NCBI GenBank assembly: GCA_020346765.1
Contig: CP070788.1
Coordinates: forward strand, 2,165,488 to 2,214,053
DNA: 48,566 nucleotides
DNA from: Nitrospiraceae bacterium
Lineage (GTDB): Bacteria; Nitrospirota; Thermodesulfovibrionia; UBA6902
Direction: 5' to 3'
Below, piece after piece: positions 13,868-45,742 of this stretch; the first letter of the stretch is position 1, and each line of letters begins with the position of its first letter. The position numbers and the translations under genes were made by a program. The notes beneath the pieces were generated by a model. It was not told where the DNA came from and did no database searches. It saw only the letters and a program-made list of their open reading frames with translations.

Positions 13868-13879
13868 AATTAAGTGAAA

Positions 13880-13959
13880 GGGTTCAAGGGGTCAAGGGGC
13901 CCAGGGGTGGAACATTGTTTATTAAATAAACTCACTCGACCCCTGGAACCCTCGACCCC
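13880..13959. repeat. Long imperfect inverted repeat built from GC-rich octamers in the aroF-tyrA spacer
   Basis: The left arm is GGGTTCAAGGGGTCAAGGGGCCCAGGGG (13880-13907). The right arm is CGACCCCTGGAACCCTCGACCCC (13937-13959). Together they give about 20 pairing positions including G-U pairs on the minus-strand RNA. The loop contains its own palindrome GTTTATTTAATAAAC. Confidence 0.6.
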
Positions 13960-13964
13960 GATTG

Positions 13965-16216: not shown

Positions 16217-16246
16217 ATTATAGGAATCAAGGGTTCAAGGATTCAA
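16217..16246 (-). promoter_or_regulatory. Putative sigma-70 promoter for hisC, embedded in the octamer repeat arm
   Basis: On the minus strand: TTGAAT (16246-16241), an 18-nt spacer and TATAAT (16222-16217). Confidence 0.45.
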
Positions 16247-16418
16247 GTATTCGAGTGTTTGCTTGCACATGTTTTACTTGACTGTCTACACCATTTGCCT
16301 TCGTGTAATCTTTTCCTGCTTCAGCAACTAGTAAGCCGGCAGGTAACAGGGTTGCCCAACATTGATTGTGCTGCAGTTCACTTGAATCCTCGCCCCCCTG
16401 GCTCCTTGAATCCTTGAT
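16226..16418. repeat. Inverted repeat of tandem RTTCAAGG octamers flanking a ~120-nt core in the pheA-hisC spacer
   Basis: The left arm is ATCAAGG-GTTCAAGG-ATTCAAGT-ATTCGAGTG (16226-16257). The right arm is CACTTGAAT-CCTCGCCCCCCTGGCT-CCTTGAAT-CCTTGAT (16379-16418), which is its imperfect reverse complement. Confidence 0.6.
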
Positions 16419-29987: not shown

Positions 29988-30033
29988 AAGGTGCTTTTTC
30001 GCCGGCTTTCCGGGAGAAGGCACCTTTTTCTTT
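29988..30033 (+). terminator. Putative intrinsic terminator or attenuator after the barrel gene
   Basis: The outer stem is AAGGTGC (29988-94) paired with GCACCTT (30020-26). It encloses an inner CCGG-CTTT-CCGG hairpin and is followed by TTTTTCTTT. The 3' arm region GGAGAAGGCACC equals the terminal repeat of the 130-nt element family. Confidence 0.5.
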
Positions 30034-30074
30034 GTATGCACGATGAAGGGTAAAAAAAAAGCCTGCTCCTGCTT

Positions 30075-30656: not shown

Positions 30657-32669
30657 TTGGAAATCGCGGCATTCATATCGATAAACGTCCTCCTTTTTTC
30701 CTCCTGGTACGGGGTGCTCCGCGGCCTGAGAGACCTGCTCCTTTTTCCTGACAGGCTTATTGCCATGTTTGTGCTTGGCCTTGTCCAGATCATCGCCACG
30801 GAAATGGTGCTGGGCGTGGTCTTTCAGAAACTTTTCCCGAGGCCCCTCTTCATCGTCAATGCGGTCATATCGCTGCTTCTAATTGCGGGAGCGGTCTCAA
30901 AGGGATACCTGCGGGGGGCCTTCGCAGAGATCGGTGAAGAAAGCGCGCGTATGGTCAAGGCCGTCAGGGGCGACAAAATCCTGTGCTCCCTTGCGGCGCT
31001 TTTCTTCATGTCCCTTCTGTGGATGGCCGTCCAGGGCTATCTCTTTCCCTCCTATGCCTGGGATGCCCTTTATTATCATCTTCCCATGGTGGGGCAGATA
31101 ATCCAGAGTGGTGCCATCAGGGAAAATCTGTCACCGTCATTTATCCAGCAATACATGAATATCTTTCCGCAGAACGTGGACCTCTTTTTCCTCTGGAACA
31201 TCATTTTTCTGAAGAGCGATGTCCTTGTTGACCTGAGCCAGCTTGTCTTTACCCTGGCCGGCGTCATCTCTGTCTACAGTATGTCCGTCAAGGCAGGGAT
31301 AGGAGAAAAATACTCGCTTTTCGGAGCGCTCCTTTTTTTCTTTACCCCCGTGCTTATCCTCCAGTCAACAACAAACTATGTTGACGCTGCCGTGTCCATG
31401 CTGTTCCTCATTGCGGTGAATTTTCTCCTCTATGACAGCCAGGGTAGTGCAGCAGTGCTCAGGGAACGCGGCAAAACTGCCGGAGACACAAAGGTCCCTC
31501 TGGTGCTCTCAGGACTGGCCGCTGGGGTCCTCATGGGGTCAAAGCCAACAGGCCCCCTGTTTCCCGCTGTTATGGTCCTGTTCATTGTTCTTCAGAAGGG
31601 GATGGAGCGGTTCATGCCTGCAGCGGGCCTGACAGACAGCAGAGGGGGATACCCCGTGAAGAGGTTTAAAGACTCTCTGCTTTATTTCATCCTTCCGGCC
31701 GCGGCTGCAGGGGGATACTGGTACGTAAAGAACTGGGTGCTCCATGGCAATCCTGTCTATTACATGGAGGTCTCCCTCTTTGGAATACCAGTTTTCACAG
31801 GGCTGAAGAGCAACTGGGTCGAGCCGCCGCCCCCTGTCATTGAGGGCCTGAATTATTTCGCCGCGCTGCTCCGTGTCTGGTCAGAGCGTGTTCAGTATTA
31901 TATGTATGATTCCCGGATGAGTGGCTTCGGCCCCCTCTGGTTCATTCTCTTCCTTTCAGCGTTTTTCTTTGCCGTTCCCAGCGCCGTAAAGCGGAAGAAC
32001 GGGGCCTTCCTTTCCGTCCTGTTCATCCTGGGTGTTGCCTTTCTGCTGCACCCCCGGAACTGGACAACACGGTACGTTATTTTTATTGTTGCTGCCGGAG
32101 CCCTGTCGTTTGGCATGCTGATGGACTCCTTCCGGAGGCAGGAGCAGGTGCTCGAGGGATGCGCCCTTGCCCTTGCAGCGTACACCGCTTTTACGGCGAA
32201 CTCTCCCTGCATTATGCCGTCAAAGGCGGCTGAGTTTCTGAGGCTCCCGGCGGAGGAGCGGACCCTGACGTCGCTCAAACCCGTTAATATCGACGAGAAG
32301 GTGCGGGGTGAATACGGGCACTGGATGTGGATCGAGCGGAATGTCAAACAAGGGGAGACCCTCGTGCATACCTTTGTAGACGCAACACTGGACACGACAC
32401 GTCCCTTTTTCCTTGCCCCTTACTGGAACAGGGGATATTCAAACCGGGTGCTCTATGTGTCGGCCGACACGTATGCGGAATGGCTGGAAGCGCTGAGACA
32501 GGCCGGGGCGACTTATGTGCTGGTCAGGAAAAACTCAAAAGAGGATGGCTGGATTGAAAAGGAGCGAAAGCTTTTTTATTCCCTCCGCTGGGCAGGCCCT
32601 GTGACGGAGAAGTTCAGGATCCTTTATGAGGATAAACAATACAGAGTATCGGACTTTTCAGGTAACTGA
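30657..32669 (+). CDS. Polytopic membrane protein, putative GT-C-fold glycosyltransferase (ArnT/PMT-like) with a C-terminal soluble domain
   Basis: The 670-aa protein has about 12 predicted TM helices. The first-loop acidic/aromatic motif YAWDALYYHLP resembles GT-C enzymes. The TTG start directly follows the TPR stop in the same frame. The family assignment is tentative. Confidence 0.5.
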   Translation: MEIAAFISINVLLFSSWYGVLRGLRDLLLFPDRLIAMFVLGLVQIIATEMVLGVVFQKLFPRPLFIVNAVISLLLIAGAVSKGYLRGAFAEIGEESARMVKAVRGDKILCSLAALFFMSLLWMAVQGYLFPSYAWDALYYHLPMVGQIIQSGAIRENLSPSFIQQYMNIFPQNVDLFFLWNIIFLKSDVLVDLSQLVFTLAGVISVYSMSVKAGIGEKYSLFGALLFFFTPVLILQSTTNYVDAAVSMLFLIAVNFLLYDSQGSAAVLRERGKTAGDTKVPLVLSGLAAGVLMGSKPTGPLFPAVMVLFIVLQKGMERFMPAAGLTDSRGGYPVKRFKDSLLYFILPAAAAGGYWYVKNWVLHGNPVYYMEVSLFGIPVFTGLKSNWVEPPPPVIEGLNYFAALLRVWSERVQYYMYDSRMSGFGPLWFILFLSAFFFAVPSAVKRKNGAFLSVLFILGVAFLLHPRNWTTRYVIFIVAAGALSFGMLMDSFRRQEQVLEGCALALAAYTAFTANSPCIMPSKAAEFLRLPAEERTLTSLKPVNIDEKVRGEYGHWMWIERNVKQGETLVHTFVDATLDTTRPFFLAPYWNRGYSNRVLYVSADTYAEWLEALRQAGATYVLVRKNSKEDGWIEKERKLFYSLRWAGPVTEKFRILYEDKQYRVSDFSGN

Positions 32670-32694
32670 TGAATGATACCGTGCAAAATTTATT

Positions 32695-32826
32695 AGAGAG
32701 AAGGCACCAGCATGTTCACTCATTCTCGACGAACATCCTGTTCGTCTCCGAGGTATTTTTTCGACAAAACATCCTGTTTTGTCTTGCTGAAAAAATAAAC
32801 CCGTTCACATACCGGTGCCTTCTCTC
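32695..32826. repeat. ~130-nt structured palindromic repeat, copy A
   Basis: The terminal inverted repeats are GAGAAGGCACCAG and CCGGTGCCTTCTC. The internal twin hairpins are GACGAAC-ATCCT-GTTCGTC and GACAAAAC-ATCCT-GTTTTGTC. It is nearly identical to copies at 33232 and 42503. Confidence 0.8.
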
Positions 32827-32998
32827 AATATTGATAAGTAAGTCAGATATAGGGAGAGCTATAACAGTCTGTCATGGTGAGCTTGTCGAACCATGGCTTT
32901 TGACTCATCCTTCGACTTGATTAGGGTAACAGTTTTAGAGGATGTGACCAGGTTATCGCTAAATTTGGGTATAAGCCAGATTCGTGGAGAGGGAAACT

Positions 32999-33160
32999 AT
33001 GAGTAATGAACGGAGACAGGACCACGCATTCGTTCTTTACATGGCTGTGGTGCTGATACTGGCCATTGTCTATTTCGCGGTCCCGGAGAGAAGCGACTTC
33101 ATTGAGTTTCAGCGCCGGTGGTGGGGAGAAATCTGGCCTCTGCTGATCCCTGCTTCCTGA
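32999..33160 (+). CDS. Hypothetical 53-aa single-TM protein (below the ORF-track cutoff)
   Basis: The sequence is MSNERRQDHAFVLYMAVVLILAIVYFAVPERSDFIEFQRRWWGEIWPLLIPAS. A GGAGAGGG SD lies 5 nt upstream. There is a clean TM helix and a Trp-rich tail. It is bracketed by repeat copies A and B. Confidence 0.4.
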   Translation: MSNERRQDHAFVLYMAVVLILAIVYFAVPERSDFIEFQRRWWGEIWPLLIPAS

Positions 33161-33231
33161 AGAGCTTTTTGCTGTCAGGCAATACAGGGATCTGACGGCT
33201 TCTTGAAATATTTCATCAGAATTCATGATTT

Positions 33232-33359
33232 GGAGAAGGCACCAGCATGTTCATTCATTCTCGCCGAACATCCTGTTCGTCTCCGAGGAATTTTTTCGAC
33301 AAAACTTCCTGTTTTGTCTCATGAAAAAATAAATCCGTTCTCATGCTGTTCCCTTCTCT
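33232..33359. repeat. ~130-nt structured palindromic repeat, copy B
   Basis: It has the same architecture as copy A. The terminal stem is GAGAAGGCACCAGCATG paired with CATGCTGTTCCCTTCTC. The hairpin loops are ATCCT and TTCCT. Confidence 0.8.
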
Positions 33360-33674
33360 TATCATTCACGCTTGTGACTTGACCGAATTAAATCCTGGCT
33401 CCAAATTCATAGCTTGATATCAGAGGTGTTGCGGTCAGATCCTTTACCGGCATTCCCTGCCTTCCGTGCAGTCATAGGAATGAAGTACGCCATAAATTGC
33501 CAGGGCCTGTTCTGGAGACGGTTTCCTGATATACTGAAGGCAGAGGGTTTGCAACAGTGCCGGGTTGACCATAGATCCATCAGTTTATCAAATAACACAA
33601 TGAGCGCGTTGACTTTACCGACCCGTACTTGATAAGGTAACTCACTGAAGGAAAGGGAGTTTACAATTACCACC

Positions 33675-35108
33675 ATGAAGCACAAAAAGGCCCTTTTTAT
33701 TGTGCCCCCGACGGGGCTGTTTTACCGTGACGACCGGTGCCAGGTGTCGCTGAAGGGCGTGTCCAACGCGCCGCGGCCGCCGCTGGACCTTGCGTACATG
33801 TCAGCGGTCCTTGAGGAGAAGGGGATCGAGTGCCGGATGAGGGACTACCCCGTTGAAGGGGGGAGCTGGCAGGATGTGGAAGAGGAGATCAGGGGCTTTG
33901 CGCCGTCGCTGCTGGTGATCTACACGACGATTACGTCGGTGAAGGATGACCTGCGTGCCTGCGGGATCGCCAAGGCGGTGAAGGGGGAGATCGTGACCAT
34001 AGCCAAGGGGGGAGACACCACGATCAGCCCTGAGGAGCGGCTTGAGCTCTGTGAAGACCTGGACATAGCCATTATCGGGGAGCCTGAGGTGACCATGCTG
34101 GAGATAGCCGAGGGGCGTGAGCGGAAGGAGATCCTGGGGATCTGCTTTCGGGAGGAGGGGCGAGTGGTCAGGACGGGGCGGCGTCCTTTTGTGGAGGATA
34201 TCGACCGGTTCCCCTTTCCGTCGCGGCACCTCCTTAAGCAGGAGCTCTATGTGAGGCCCGACACGGGGGAGGTGCAGACAACGGTGCAGTCCAGCCGGGG
34301 GTGTCCAGCCAAATGCATCTACTGCCTGAGCCGTGTGGTGGCAGGGGCGGAGCTGAGGCTGAGGTCGCCGGGGAATGTGGTGGATGAGCTGGAGCACTGT
34401 GTGCGGGAGTACGGGATCAGGAACTTTTTTTTCCGGGCGGACACCTTTACCTGGGACCGGGAGTGGGTGGTGGCGGTGTGCCGGGAGATCCTGAGGAGGA
34501 AGCTGGACATCCAGTGGGTGGCGAACAGCCGGGCGAACACGATCTGCGCGGAGCGGCTCATGTGGATGAAGAGGGCGGGGTGCTGGCTGGTGTCCTTCGG
34601 GGTAGAGAGCGGGAACCAGTATATCCTGGACATGACGCAGAAGGGGATAACCCTTCAGGAGTCGCGGGAGGCGCTGAGGCTGGCGAAGAAGCACGGGCTG
34701 AAGACCTTTGTGACCTTTCTGATCGGGATGCCCTGGGACACGCGTGAGACGATCATGGAGACCTTTGACTTTGCCCGGGAGATCGACGGGGACTACTTTG
34801 AGGTGATCCTGCCCTATCCGTTTCCGGGGACACGGTACTATGAAATTGCGAAGCGTGACGGGCTGATAGAGGAAGGGGCCTATGACAAATTCTATGACCA
34901 CTTCAACTCCGTGGTGAGGACCTATCACCTGACTGCTGCTGAGCTTACGGAGCTGAAGAAGAAGTCCTTCTGGTATCTGTACGCACGGCCCCGGTACATC
35001 AAAAAGATCATATCCCAGTGCGACTCGCCCAGGGCGCTGAAAAACTACCTCTCCTTCGGCATCAGCAAGATGAAGGCCCATTTCGGAGGGGAGCCAGGGA
35101 GAAGATGA
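33675..35108 (+). CDS. B12-binding-domain radical SAM protein (class B)
   Basis: An N-terminal cobalamin-binding-like Rossmann region (ALFIVPP...PPLDLAYMSAVLEEKGIE) is followed by the radical SAM cluster motif SSRGCPAKCIYC and a GVESG motif. Confidence 0.85.
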   Translation: MKHKKALFIVPPTGLFYRDDRCQVSLKGVSNAPRPPLDLAYMSAVLEEKGIECRMRDYPVEGGSWQDVEEEIRGFAPSLLVIYTTITSVKDDLRACGIAKAVKGEIVTIAKGGDTTISPEERLELCEDLDIAIIGEPEVTMLEIAEGRERKEILGICFREEGRVVRTGRRPFVEDIDRFPFPSRHLLKQELYVRPDTGEVQTTVQSSRGCPAKCIYCLSRVVAGAELRLRSPGNVVDELEHCVREYGIRNFFFRADTFTWDREWVVAVCREILRRKLDIQWVANSRANTICAERLMWMKRAGCWLVSFGVESGNQYILDMTQKGITLQESREALRLAKKHGLKTFVTFLIGMPWDTRETIMETFDFAREIDGDYFEVILPYPFPGTRYYEIAKRDGLIEEGAYDKFYDHFNSVVRTYHLTAAELTELKKKSFWYLYARPRYIKKIISQCDSPRALKNYLSFGISKMKAHFGGEPGRR

Positions 35109-42188: not shown

Positions 42189-42502
42189 GGGATAGAGAAT
42201 TATAAACCAAAGCGGGAAGAGAATGCAGGGGAACGCCTTTCCATGGAAGGGACACCGGGATAAAGGCACAGAGGAGGCGCAAAGGGGGGCCTGAGGAGGA
42301 ATTTCTATACGACACTGATGAAAAAGAGATGTGAGTCTGGAGTTATGAGTTAAGCAAGTCAGGATTTATGATTAGCTCGAAGCGAACTGTAATATGGTGT
42401 TTGTCGATTATAGAAATTCCGAGGCAGGTTGCTCTTTGCGCCCGTAAAGATATTAACTGAAAGTCAAGATGTTGGGAATTAATAACATAAACGTGAATGA
42501 GG

Positions 42503-42632
42503 AGAGAGGGCACCAGCCTTTTCACTCATTCTCGACGAACATTCTGTTCGTCTCCGAGGTATTTTTTTGACAAAACCTCCTGTTTTGTCTTTTCAAAAAA
42601 TAAATCCATTCAAAGGCTGGTTGCCTTCTCTC
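42503..42632. repeat. ~130-nt structured palindromic repeat, copy C
   Basis: The twin-hairpin core is the same, with loops ATTCT and CTCCT. The terminal stem has changed on both sides (CCAGCCTTT paired with AAAGGCTGG) yet remains complementary. Confidence 0.8.
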
Positions 42633-42746: not shown

Positions 42747-44591
42747 ATGGATTTGATCAAAAAGGTTCAGCAGGCACCAGCGTCTCCCGGCATTTACCTC
42801 ATGAAGGGCGCAAAGGAGCGGGTCATTTATGTGGGCAAGGCAAAAAACCTCAGAAAGAGGCTCCGGTCCTATTTTCAGGGCAGTGGTACCCTCGATGATC
42901 GGAAGGCCAGGATGGTCCGGGAGGTCAGGGGCTTTGAGTGCATTGTCACGGGCAATGAACTGGAGGCCCTGATCCTTGAAGCGAGCTTCATCAAGAGGTT
43001 AAAGCCCTCGTACAATATCATCCTCAGGGACGACAAGAACTATCCCTACCTTAAGATGACCGTCAGGGAGGAGTGGCCCAGGCTTGAGGTGGTGCGCCGG
43101 GTAGAAAAAGACGGGTCCCTCTATTTCGGCCCCTATGTCCCTGCCGGGGCAATGTGGGAAATGCTGAAGTTCATCCGGCGCACCTTCCCGTTCCGCATCT
43201 GCCGGTACAGTATGGACAAGCCCTTCCGCCCCTGTGTGCAGCATCAGATGGGGCGATGCCCTGCGCCCTGCTCGGAATCGCTGAGGTCGCCCCGGCACCG
43301 GGAGGAATACCGCGAAACCGTCAACGAGGTGATTGCCTTCATCCAGGGGGAAAAGAAGGAGCTGCTGGAAAGCCTCAGGAACCGCATGCAGAAATACTCA
43401 GAAGAGATGCGCTACGAAGAGGCTGCGGGAATACGTGACAGGCTCAGGGCCCTTGAAAAGGCATGGGAATCCCAGCGGGTCATTGCCCCTGAACTGGGTG
43501 ACCTGGACGTGATCGGGATCTACCGGGAAGGAGAAGAGGCGTCCCTCTTTGTGCTCTTTATCAGAAATGGTGCTGTGATCGGGCAGAAAGATTTTTTCAT
43601 AAAGGAGCTGGGCGGCATGGAGGACAGCGAGCTTCTTGAGAGCTTCATCAATCAATTCTATTCAAAGGAGCTTCTCCTGCCCCGTAAAATAGTCATTCCT
43701 CTCAAAACTGCCTTGCCTGCCCAGCAGAAATGGCTCAGCGAACGGGAAGGGCATCCTGTGCGATTTGTTCAGGCCCGGGGGGACAGGGAGCGTGAGGTCC
43801 TGAAGATGGCCGGGGAAAATGCCTGTTACTCCTTTAGCAGGCACAAGGGCTCGGATCTAAACGAAACCCTCCTCAGGATCAAGGACCTCCTGGACCTGAA
43901 GAAGGTACCCCGCAGGATAGGGGCCATGGATATTTCGACCATTGCGGGTGCAGAGTCCGTGGGCGCCCTGATCATGTGCGAGGACGGGAAGTTCATGAAG
44001 GACGACTACCGCCTGTTCAGGATCAGAGCGGTCCCGGGAATGGACGACTTTGCTAGGATAGAGGAAGTGATGGGGAGATACGTGGAGAACATCTCCGGCA
44101 AGGGGGAGGAACTGCCCCAGCTTTTTCTCATTGACGGCGGGCGGGGCCAGCTCAGGGCCGCGCTCTCGGCACTGGGCCGGCTCAATGTAGACGTTGAGGT
44201 GGTAGCGATCGCCAAGGCCCGTGATGAGGTCCCCGGAAGGAAATCCGCTGTCCGCAGTGAATTCGAGCGCGTGTACCTGCCCGGCAGGCGCTCCCCCCTG
44301 CACCTGGATCCCTTTGCGCCGTCAACCCATCTTCTCAAGAGGATCCGCGATGAGGTGCACCGCGTAGCCGTGGGGTATCACCGTAAGATCAGGGCACAGA
44401 GGACGCTCGAATCGCCTCTTGAGAAAATAGCAGGGATCGGGAGGACACGAAGGCTTCTCCTCCTGAAGCACTTTGGCAGTATCGAGGCCATCAGAAAGGC
44501 GGCCATCGATGACATTGCTTCCCTGAAGGGGATGAACAGAAAGGTTGCCGAGAAGGTGAAGGAGGGGCTTGCCCGGGGCCCAAAGGCATGA
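42747..44591 (+). CDS. uvrC: Excinuclease ABC subunit C
   Basis: The GIY-YIG N-terminus is PGIYLMKG..ERVIYVGKAKNLRKRL. UVR domain, endonuclease V-like and C-terminal (HhH)2 regions are present. Confidence 0.95.
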   Translation: MDLIKKVQQAPASPGIYLMKGAKERVIYVGKAKNLRKRLRSYFQGSGTLDDRKARMVREVRGFECIVTGNELEALILEASFIKRLKPSYNIILRDDKNYPYLKMTVREEWPRLEVVRRVEKDGSLYFGPYVPAGAMWEMLKFIRRTFPFRICRYSMDKPFRPCVQHQMGRCPAPCSESLRSPRHREEYRETVNEVIAFIQGEKKELLESLRNRMQKYSEEMRYEEAAGIRDRLRALEKAWESQRVIAPELGDLDVIGIYREGEEASLFVLFIRNGAVIGQKDFFIKELGGMEDSELLESFINQFYSKELLLPRKIVIPLKTALPAQQKWLSEREGHPVRFVQARGDREREVLKMAGENACYSFSRHKGSDLNETLLRIKDLLDLKKVPRRIGAMDISTIAGAESVGALIMCEDGKFMKDDYRLFRIRAVPGMDDFARIEEVMGRYVENISGKGEELPQLFLIDGGRGQLRAALSALGRLNVDVEVVAIAKARDEVPGRKSAVRSEFERVYLPGRRSPLHLDPFAPSTHLLKRIRDEVHRVAVGYHRKIRAQRTLESPLEKIAGIGRTRRLLLLKHFGSIEAIRKAAIDDIASLKGMNRKVAEKVKEGLARGPKA

Positions 44592-45655
44592 TTAACGAAA
44601 AAAGCATCAAGAACTATCTCAGCGGCATCTTTGGCAGTGAGGCCCGATACGTTCATATTGAAAAGCTGGGAGCGGGCGTGCAGGGCGCGGGGTTTCTCAT
44701 TGAAATACAGACGCCGGAAGGGAAGCGGCAGTACGTCATCAAGGGGCTCTTCCCCGAGGGGCTGGAGCATGACTACCCTGCTGACCGGGCGGGGGTTTTT
44801 CTTCTCGACCTGGATGAATTCGGACGGCTGCCCCGGCATGTCAGGGCCGTAGACGTGCTGTCGGAAATGGAGGACGGGTCGATCAAATCAATCGGCGGGG
44901 GCAGAGAGTATTACCTTCTCATGGAACGGGCCGAGGGCAGGCATTATTTTCACGACCTTGCATCCTTTGCAGGCAAGGAGAAACTGGACACCTCGGACAT
45001 TATCAAGGTCCAGTCAATGGCCTCCTATCTTGCCAAGATCCACGCTGTGAAGAAGGACTCGCGGCACCTGCACTGGCGGAAAGTACGAGACACCATTGGC
45101 CACGGCGAGTGCCTTATGGGCGTCTTTGACATGTATCCTGACAATACGCTGAGCTATAGCGACATGGCTGAGATAGAAAAAAAGTGCGTGGACTGGCGGG
45201 CGAGGCTCAAGCCGAAATTCAGGCGGCTTTGCCAGGTGCACGGCGATTTTCATCCGGGGAACATATGGTTCCGGGGGCCGGGGGACTTTATTCTCCTGGA
45301 CCGCAGCCGGGGGCCCTGGGGAGATGCTGCGGACGATGTGACGGCGCTGACGATTAATTACATCTTTTTTTCGATCAACCACTTCGGGAAACTGCAGGGA
45401 CCCTACGAGGAAGCATTGCGCCTGTTCTATGACAAGTATTTCAATGAGTCAGGGGACATGGAGCTGTTCAGCGTGGTCGCCCCGTTTTACGCCTTCCGGG
45501 GCGCGGTTGTTGCCAACCCGGTCTTTTACGCGGAGGTGACGCGGGAAAACAGGCGGAAGATCTTCAACTTTATTCACGGCGTGCTCGATGATGAGAGGTT
45601 TCATATTGAGAAGGTGAATGAGTATATAAAAACAGGGGCCAAGGGGCCTCGATAA
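44588..45655 (+). CDS. Phosphotransferase-family protein (APH/ChoK-like kinase fold)
   Basis: The catalytic loop is HGDFHPGNIWF and the downstream motif is ILLDRSRGPWGDAADDV (DxD). It overlaps the uvrC stop by 4 nt. The substrate is unknown. Confidence 0.6.
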   Translation: MINEKSIKNYLSGIFGSEARYVHIEKLGAGVQGAGFLIEIQTPEGKRQYVIKGLFPEGLEHDYPADRAGVFLLDLDEFGRLPRHVRAVDVLSEMEDGSIKSIGGGREYYLLMERAEGRHYFHDLASFAGKEKLDTSDIIKVQSMASYLAKIHAVKKDSRHLHWRKVRDTIGHGECLMGVFDMYPDNTLSYSDMAEIEKKCVDWRARLKPKFRRLCQVHGDFHPGNIWFRGPGDFILLDRSRGPWGDAADDVTALTINYIFFSINHFGKLQGPYEEALRLFYDKYFNESGDMELFSVVAPFYAFRGAVVANPVFYAEVTRENRRKIFNFIHGVLDDERFHIEKVNEYIKTGAKGPR

Positions 45656-45659
45656 AGAA

Positions 45660-45685
45660 AGTTGTCAGTTTTTAGACTGACAACT
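45660..45685 (+). other. Perfect 10-bp stem-loop between the kinase-like gene and the IMPase gene
   Basis: The structure is AGTTGTCAGT-TTTTAG-ACTGACAACT. There is no U tract on the plus strand, so it is not a classical terminator. Confidence 0.3.
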
Positions 45686-45742
45686 GAAATATGAAAACTA
45701 ACAGCTTTATTTTCTCTCGAAACGTGGACCTCTGGCTTAATC

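Follow-up and report, generated by a model that had tools for sequence, protein, structure and literature searches.

The subject of this study is a family of short, non-coding repeats in a 48,566-nucleotide stretch of DNA from a Nitrospiraceae bacterium (GenBank assembly GCA_020346765.1, contig CP070788.1, positions 2,165,488 to 2,214,053 of the forward strand), referred to below as the window. The window is a piece of ordinary Nitrospirota chromosome, carrying motAB, rpsA, ispH, cmk, aroA, tyrA, pheA, leuB, ubiE and uvrC. A repeat search of the window revealed one three-copy family, at 32698-32813, 33233-33348 and 42504-42619, with 80-86% ungapped identity. The covariance model of the family extends these matches to the full units listed below, all on the + strand and all scoring 137-148 bits; the three same-orientation copies reported in a preliminary description of this DNA are real. 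Matches to the conserved 16-mer and to the hairpin-2 pattern are in excess of the shuffle expectation. The unit is ~130 bp long and non-coding, and four dispersed copies of it are known: copies A, B and C in the window, and a metagenomic copy described further on. The window copies and their parts are as follows.

32696-32826, + strand: copy A, 148 bits; folding energy -52.6 kcal/mol on the + strand and -65.8 kcal/mol on the - strand
32696-32715 and 32807-32826, + strand: closing stem of copy A (this and the other parts of copy A placed from alignments)
32724-32753, + strand: hairpin 1 of copy A, with the loop ATCCT at 32735-32739
32754-32797, + strand: hairpin 2 of copy A, with the loop ATCCT at 32771-32775
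33231-33360, + strand: copy B, 137 bits; folding energy -43.0 kcal/mol on the + strand and -42.6 kcal/mol on the - strand
33270-33274 and 33306-33310, + strand: loops of copy B, ATCCT and TTCCT
42502-42632, + strand: copy C, 148 bits; boundaries from the covariance model
42541-42545 and 42577-42581, + strand: loops of copy C, ATTCT and CTCCT

With filters off, no covariance-model score above 20 bits was obtained in the rest of the window; weak model matches at 13889-13958 and 45654-45712 are unrelated hairpins. A coding repeat was considered and rejected: the three window copies lie in three different frames with respect to the open reading frames (ORFs) that cross them, and they differ from one another by indels.

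The consensus fold of the family is a three-way junction, in which a ~20-bp closing stem encloses two tandem, paralogous stem-loops. Alignment and fold together confirm the terminal inverted repeats and twin internal hairpins that had been proposed at the outset. The closing stem is formed by the terminal inverted repeats GAGAGAAGGCACCAG... / ...CTGGTGCCTTCTCTC (written longer, GAGAGAAGGCACCAGCATG... / ...CATGCTGGTGCCTTCTCTC), and its length across the family is 20-30 bp. The two hairpins lie at the centre of the unit and are direct repeats, loops included. Each consists of (i) a lower stem, (ii) a 3-5-nt bulge on the 3' side, (iii) a 7-8-bp upper stem, and (iv) a loop that reads (N)UCCU on the + strand. 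Hairpin 1 has the sequence CTCG-ACGAAC-ATCCT-GTTCGT-CTC-CGAG, with GACGAAC-ATCCT-GTTCGTC as its upper part, while hairpin 2 follows the pattern TATTTTTTC-GACAAAAC-NTCCT-GTTTTGTC-(4-5 nt)-GAAAAAATA. Since their architecture is the same, the two hairpins are an internal duplication.

The predicted folds are very stable. RNA folding energies range from -43 to -68 kcal/mol (z-scores of -4.9 to -12, metagenomic copy included), and the three window copies fold far better than shuffled sequences on both strands (z -4.9 to -10.2), an advantage that is expected of a palindrome. The unit is likewise stable when folded as DNA (-32 to -47 kcal/mol, z -8 to -13). Copy B is the most degenerate copy, with six non-pairing positions.

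The fourth copy was found with an exact pattern restricted to hairpin 2. This pattern gave no match in GTDB genomes and a single match in JGI metagenomes, while a pattern that included hairpin 1, GTTCGTCTCCGAGGN{7,11}GACAAAAC, matched nothing in GTDB genomes, JGI metagenomes or IMG/VR, and a third exact pattern matched nothing in viral contigs. The new copy occupies positions 882-1011 of the JGI metagenome contig Ga0224505_10021191 (hereafter L003), an unrelated contig that also belongs to Nitrospirota, and scores 126 bits.

Comparison of the four copies revealed two points of interest. Firstly, the fold is supported by paired changes. In hairpin 1 of L003, two compensatory pairs turn GACGAAC/GTTCGTC into GACAGAC/GTCTGTC; the outer half of the L003 closing stem has a different sequence yet is perfectly complementary, so that the stem reaches about 30 bp; and the closing stem of copy C shows two compensatory pair changes with respect to copies A and B (alignment columns 17/115 and 19/113). 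Across the four copies, 13 of 49 pairs have changed on both sides, while 94.9% of cells remain paired. None of 500 shuffles reached the observed values, and slid controls gave 0-3 such pairs. Secondly, sequence conservation is concentrated at the centre of the unit. The ~90-nt twin-hairpin core is 89-91% identical among the window copies and 84-88% identical between these and L003 (84-91% for every pair among the four copies). By contrast, identity over the outermost 12 bp is 75-92% among the window copies, and falls to 35-43%—about random—between these and L003. Variable columns account for 28 of 41 positions in the closing stem versus 19 of 91 in the core (p = 3.5e-7), and for 14 of 41 versus 12 of 91 when only the window copies are taken (p = 0.008). 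Judged from these alignments, the fold is maintained, with a centre that is constrained in sequence and ends that are not.

The genes next to the three window copies, and those compared in related loci, are listed here.

30657-32669, + strand: gene for a 670-aa protein with no Pfam match; homologs of at most 59% identity in Nitrospirota
32999-33160, + strand: 53-aa small ORF with the motif YF.VPE..EF.EFQ.KWWGE, flanked by copies A and B; homologous translations in the window and in the related loci L001 and L002
33675-35108, + strand: B12-binding radical SAM gene (PF04055, PF02310), in the same position in L001 and L002
41475-42269, - strand: ubiE/COQ5-type methyltransferase gene (PF01209)
42747-44591, + strand: uvrC (Pfam UvrC domains)

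Copy A begins 26 nt past the stop codon of the 670-aa gene and ends 172 nt before the small conserved ORF. Copy B lies 71 nt past that ORF and 314 nt before the B12-radical SAM gene. Copy C is found in the spacer from which ubiE (-) and uvrC (+) diverge; it is 114 nt upstream of where uvrC starts and 232 nt upstream of where the ubiE ORF does. A search for further copies in ~115 kb of related Nitrospirota loci, using covariance models R1 and R2, returned none.

In L001 and L002, whose 670-aa protein is 57% identical to that of the window, the 670-aa gene, the small ORF and the radical SAM gene follow one another in the same order and are free of the element. In these relatives, the stop codon of the 670-aa gene is overlapped by the small ORF, after which the radical SAM gene comes at once or ~150 nt on. 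Since this gene string is conserved and compact in L001 and L002, copies A and B represent extra DNA within a conserved + strand gene string. The L003 element lies, in sense orientation, between oppB-like and oppC-like permease genes. Here the corresponding site is empty in four relatives (L004, L005, L006 and L007), with a spacer of 3 nt where the OppC protein is 88% identical and of 17 nt where it is 84% identical. The right flank of the L003 element aligns to the oppC start of the relatives, a score that was equalled by none of 2000 shuffles. On the strength of these alignments, the L003 junction is a filled site, as opposed to the empty sites of its relatives. Filled and empty sites among related genomes, the pattern by which one recognizes a MITE (miniature inverted-repeat transposable element), are hence seen at L003 and at copies A and B.

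Several further features of these neighbourhoods were recorded. The closest homologue of the 670-aa protein is only 59% identical, so that the collections contain no close relative. The small ORF is conserved at 53-58 aa (L002 11998-12159, L001 11997-12173), with no Pfam family and, by eye, an apparent hydrophobic stretch; in the window, L001 and L002 it always sits between the 670-aa protein and the B12-radical SAM enzyme. An 83-aa ORF (32669-32920, +) starts at a TGATG stop/start overlap with the 670-aa gene and reads through copy A. Its start is the position at which the relatives begin the small ORF, and the 83-aa ORF is probably not a gene but what is left of the ancestral, coupled start site. 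A 34-nt inverted repeat (42276-42309 / 42409-42442; 76% complementary, arms 99 nt apart) separates ubiE from copy C, a short way upstream of the point where the ubiE ORF starts. Finally, in a relative of the L003 organism with 82% OppC identity (L011 7984-8095 and 9074-9241; also L012-L014), the oppB-oppC junction carries a different, ~95-nt imperfect palindrome, TTCAGCTGCCGGCGATCAGCT...AGCTGACTGCTGAA, and the oppC-oppD spacer is 168 nt long. It appears that unrelated palindromes are gathered by insertion at the intercistronic junctions of the opp operon.

The three copies that lie between cistrons (A, B and L003) are all in sense orientation with same-strand genes on either side, which means that the units are transcribed within + strand mRNAs. 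With + strand genes on both sides of these three copies, the genomic context favours a + strand RNA. The preliminary description had argued for the opposite strand, on the grounds that two non-Watson-Crick positions in the terminal stem of copy A are A-C mismatches on the + strand and G-U wobbles on the - strand. Both A-C mismatches do exist (columns 14/118 and 16/116), but copy A is not representative of the family. Copies B and C each contain one G-U pair that requires the + strand, and at the base of hairpin 1 (columns 29/58) a U-G pair, again possible on the + strand only, is invariant in the four copies. The tally of wobbles for the family is three + strand events versus two - strand events. 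Similarly, copy A is the only copy to fold better on the - strand (by 13 kcal/mol), while copies B, C and L003 fold equally well on both.

Similarity between copies stops at the ends of the closing stem, and nothing outside the palindrome is conserved; the repeated unit therefore comes without a promoter or terminator of its own. A consensus scan did reveal two sigma-70-like sites that straddle the right junctions of copies A and B.

32804-32832, + strand: sigma-70-like site at the right junction of copy A, with -35 TTCACA in the element and -10 AATATT in the flank (consensus scan only)
33338-33365, + strand: sigma-70-like site at the right junction of copy B, with -35 TTCTCA in the element and -10 TATCAT in the flank (consensus scan only)

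These are the only promoter-like matches in 32400-33800, and both face the downstream genes. No equivalent junction site was found by the scan at copy C, and inspection of the L003 junction by eye gave only a weak one.

Sequence searches place the family outside known groups. Nothing in Rfam reached gathering thresholds, the best score being 17.1 bits to CsrB against a gathering score of 71, and no known ribozyme or riboswitch family was matched. A blastn search of plasmids and phages returned no match. Nor did a blastn search of 5,426 E. coli genomes for ERIC homology, with E-values up to 1. A chimeric six-frame translation of the element matched none of 5.8 billion proteins. A phmmer search of 1.84 billion representatives with the 83-aa ORF across copy A gave three matches, 28-34% identical and unrelated; the two that were inspected are long tandem-repeat proteins. 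Literature searches on CsrA in Nitrospirae, on CsrA together with MITEs, and on sequence strings of the element returned nothing relevant. As far as these sequence comparisons go, the repeat family has no counterpart in what was searched, namely Rfam, plasmids, phages, E. coli genomes and protein collections.

The reading that we favour, at a probability of roughly 0.6, is that the repeats are a small family of dispersed, palindromic insertion elements of Nitrospirota—non-coding, ~130 bp in length, and kin in kind to MITE-like elements, ERIC, Correia and REPIN. Short spacers within operons, or beside them, have gained such units. Their propagation would most likely depend on recognition of the folded core by a trans-acting enzyme, because the stems co-vary, the outermost stem differs between lineages and the core is 84-91% identical. 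The obvious candidate for this enzyme is a single-strand transposase of the HUH/Y1 type that would act on both hairpins as a dimer; recognition of the terminal repeats as sequence, by some other transposase, is less likely. Once in an mRNA, the very stable fold would separate and uncouple cistrons that formerly overlapped and were coupled. By analogy with ERIC and Correia, it could also act as a determinant of processing or stability. In copies A and B, the right arm would additionally supply a -35-like hexamer that faces the downstream gene.

A number of observations weigh against this reading. Neither a target-site duplication nor a common target motif is seen: the copies share no abutting direct repeat of at least 3 nt, even when boundary shifts of up to 3 nt are allowed. 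The window contains no transposase, RAYT or insertion sequence (IS), and no parent element was found in it. By the exact-pattern scans of GTDB, JGI and IMG/VR, the family is very rare in public data, which is unusual for a successful mobile element. The sample consists of four copies, three of which come from one 48-kb window, and both the orientation bias (3/3 sense) and any target preference are statistically weak at this number. For copies A and B, empty sites are seen only in distant relatives (57-59% protein identity), and the insertions are not dated. Lastly, the unpaired junctions and the loops are conserved between two lineages whose OppC homologues (orthology not established) are ~66% identical; an RNA with a selected function in the cell could account for these conserved positions equally well.

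Known systems offer partial parallels to such an insertion element. Small repeats of bacteria, 100-200 bp in length, are transcribed together with their neighbours and form long stem-loops (PMC2229807). Close in kind is ERIC/IRU (127 bp), which is likewise a ~130-bp imperfect, non-coding palindrome situated in transcribed spacers in or next to operons, co-transcribed, and folded as RNA into a long stem-loop (PMC2229807). The repeat has the features that define the ERIC-like class (an imperfect palindrome of 100-200 bp, in a transcribed spacer, forming a stable stem-loop), this being a class of function and not of homology. The effect of ERIC on mRNA stability is orientation-dependent, and effects on mRNA stability or processing have been documented or proposed for both ERIC and Correia (PMC2229807). 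The repeat differs from ERIC in several respects: ERIC is reported to have TA ends and target duplications (PMC2229807), neither of which is seen here, and it is a single long hairpin from another host phylum, where the repeat is a three-way junction with twin hairpins. The Correia/NEMIS elements of Neisseria are also similar, being MITE-like units of 100-155 bp that lie near genes, are co-transcribed, form stem-loops that have been proposed as RNase III substrates, and provide promoter elements from their ends (PMC2229807). The last of these properties may be compared with the right ends of copies A and B, where a -35-like hexamer is present. Correia elements differ in their conserved 24-bp terminal repeats and TA duplication (PMC2229807); the repeat has neither.

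As regards a putative mechanism of mobility, the nearest analogy would be with REPIN/RAYT and IS200/IS605, in which single-stranded DNA hairpins are recognized by their structure and two similar hairpins are bound by a transposase dimer (PMC3116915). REPIN hairpins are mobile and accumulate compensatory changes, and a RAYT dimer is thought to recognize them (PMC3116915). Like the repeat, REPINs are short mobile DNAs with a compensated hairpin, two modules and no classical target duplication, and a 'clover' of two hairpins on a stem has been described for them (PMC3116915). They differ in that REP modules are inverted, with conserved ends and a variable spacer, while the repeat has direct hairpins at its centre and variable ends; moreover, REPINs are associated with a RAYT, and no RAYT-like gene is present in the window. 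Palindrome-associated elements derived from IS200/IS605 contain two similar, direct, imperfect hairpins that a Y1 transposase dimer would bind, and they insert with a strand bias and no target duplication. IS200/IS605 ends lack long terminal inverted repeats, and insertion occurs 3' of a fixed tetra- or pentanucleotide. The repeat, in contrast, has a 20-30-bp closing stem and no shared flank motif. The preliminary description had itself named a MITE or REP-like mobile palindrome as an alternative. A mobile palindrome without target-site duplication indeed fits much better than a small RNA does, although the repeat lacks the conserved ends and target-site duplication of a classical MITE and the inverted, terminal hairpins of a REPIN.

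Among other explanations, the one that survives best is that the repeat is a selected, cis-acting sense RNA module. The twin (N)UCCU hairpins would then be bound by a dimeric RNA-binding protein, or pair with Shine-Dalgarno-like purine runs, and so regulate the translation, processing or stability of operons; duplication would give rise to the copies, and pairing is all that would be required of the closing stem. Several observations are in line with such a module: the core is 84-91% identical over two divergent lineages while the closing stem co-varies, the unpaired junction nucleotides and seven of the eight loops are conserved, the operon-internal copies are all sense, and the + strand-only U-G pair is invariant. 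Yet the neighbouring genes (for an unknown 670-aa protein, a radical SAM enzyme, uvrC and an opp permease) are functionally unrelated, the orthologous junctions in relatives do without the element, their genes working in tight coupling, copy B is in decay, as its six unpaired positions show, and no Rfam family is matched on the + strand. Taken together, we regard this explanation as possible but doubtful.

An origin as a classical MITE is still harder to sustain. The repeat would in that case be an internally deleted IS whose terminal inverted repeats are bound by a DDE transposase, which mobilizes it; the parent IS would carry the ends GAGAGAAGGCACC. The size of the unit, its non-coding nature, the ~20-bp terminal inverted repeats, the dispersed copies and the empty sites in relatives all agree with this, as do AT-rich flanks at copies A, B and L003. 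The distribution of conservation does not. In the repeat, the terminal sequence is the least conserved part—wholly different in L003—and the interior the best conserved, which is the opposite of what transposase-bound ends would produce; nor, with each end read as sequence, would one expect the arms to show paired compensatory changes. There is, in addition, no target-site duplication, even with boundary shifts of up to 3 nt allowed, and no IS or transposase occurs in the window. An improbable explanation, in our view.

A hybrid of mobility and selected function was also considered, to which we give little credence: that the twin-hairpin core is a mobile, selected protein-binding module that installs two identical hairpin sites into operons. 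Such a module would display anti-Shine-Dalgarno-like UCCU loops in sense and CsrA-type CAGGANG loops in antisense; purifying selection would act on it while the closing stem co-varied freely, and it would not be merely selfish DNA.

The weakest of the explanations is the one advanced in the preliminary description, namely that the - strand is a CsrB/RsmZ-like small RNA, which exposes two GGA hairpin loops and titrates CsrA. The loop sequences themselves are as claimed (CAGGATG and CAGGATG in copy A, CAGGATG and CAGGAAG in copy B, CAGAATG and CAGGAGG in copy C). Seven of eight hairpins, L003 included, read CAGGA(U/A/G/C)G on the - strand, and the likeness to the CsrB repeat consensus CAGGA(U/A/C)G is thereby upheld. 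However, the two hairpins of a unit are duplicates, so their GGA content amounts to about one observation, and we estimate at ~9% the chance that GGA occurs, on one strand or the other, in a 5-nt loop. Each unit offers two GGA sites only; known sponges present far more. The CsrB model does match the - strand over copy B, with 17.1 bits and E = 0.029 in a 1.3-kb search, but this lies far below the gathering score and would not be significant over the whole window. The 13 kcal/mol by which copy A is more stable on the - strand would suit a - strand RNA, and is set against the mixed wobble evidence and the equal folding of the other three copies.

Genomic context bears on this explanation too. 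CsrA-FliW systems are common in flagellated bacteria, and motA and motB in the window suggest a flagellated organism; neither the 48.6-kb window nor ~115 kb of related loci was found to encode csrA. The - strand of copy C points toward ubiE, in whose leader that copy could lie, while the - strand of copies A, B and L003 is antisense to the operon. No promoter-like or terminator-like site was found by scanning the - strand beside any window copy, nothing outside the palindrome is conserved, and the element is absent at orthologous loci. CsrB, RsmZ and RsmY (Rfam clan CL00106) share with the repeat hairpin loops of the form CAGGANG on one strand. The repeat differs from them in having two sites only, on a strand antisense to the host operons, with no promoter or terminator of its own and a sub-threshold Rfam score, and in being an insertion polymorphism, not a conserved gene. 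GGA-type loops come with the conserved core, on its antisense strand, and do not count as evidence that CsrA is titrated. Given that the GGA strand is antisense to operons, that transcription signals are lacking, that the Rfam score is weak and that orthologous sites are empty, a CsrA-titrating small RNA on the - strand is not supported, and we consider it very improbable.

Other candidates were tried and set aside. The repeat is not an intrinsic terminator or attenuator: no copy is followed by a T-run, a terminator scan was negative at the three window copies, and copy C lies between divergent genes. Its ends bear no resemblance to attC sites, and nothing in the fold or context points to a retron or riboswitch (in both cases by inspection only). 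The flanks of copies A and B are not similar, speaking against a local duplication. We also asked whether the outer arms were copied from the 5' end of the target gene; the similarity of the copy A arm to the small-ORF start (p = 0.08), and of the L003 arm to the L007 oppC start (p = 0.19), is not significant.

The window contains other palindromes. A terminator-like hairpin at 29988-30031 (+), AAGGTGCTTTTTCGCCGG-CTTT-CCGGGAGAAGGCACCTT followed by a T-run, lies after a 332-aa ORF. The end motif GGAGAAGGCACC of the repeat, which the preliminary description had seen recurring in this region, is found at 30013-30024, within the hairpin. The hairpin combines this left-arm motif with a GGTGC-TTTTTC arm resembling the right arm, in an order reversed with respect to the repeat. 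An exact 11-mer is expected ~0.02 times in the window (our own estimate), and the covariance-model match at 30012-30070 (-) scores only 12.8 bits; the hairpin could be a relic of an element end, or chance. A second type of intergenic palindrome, built of TCAAGG-type short repeats, occupies spacers of the aromatic amino-acid gene cluster at 13868-13964 and 16217-16411 (GGTTCAAGGGGTCAAGGGG... / ...CCCCTGGAACCCTCGACCCC, and GAATCAAGGGTTCAAGGATTCAAGT / ACTTGAATCC...CCTTGAATCCTTGA). At 45654-45712, after an APH-family gene and before an inositol monophosphatase gene, lies an AT-rich perfect hairpin (GTTGTCAGTTTTTAGACTGACAAC), by its looks an ordinary terminator with no relation to the repeat.

The work presented here describes a new repeat family from the poorly studied phylum Nitrospirota, with the unusual pattern of an invariant twin-hairpin centre and co-varying, lineage-specific ends. 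This pattern of conservation points to recognition based on structure over recognition based on end sequence. The family's covariance model can be used to annotate the element, and the loci that it occupies are flagged as insertion polymorphisms that break translational coupling in operons. The case also serves as a warning that calling CsrB-like small RNAs from GGA loops alone is unsafe. Were it true that the core binds a cellular protein, the family would provide an example of a mobile regulatory RNA module.

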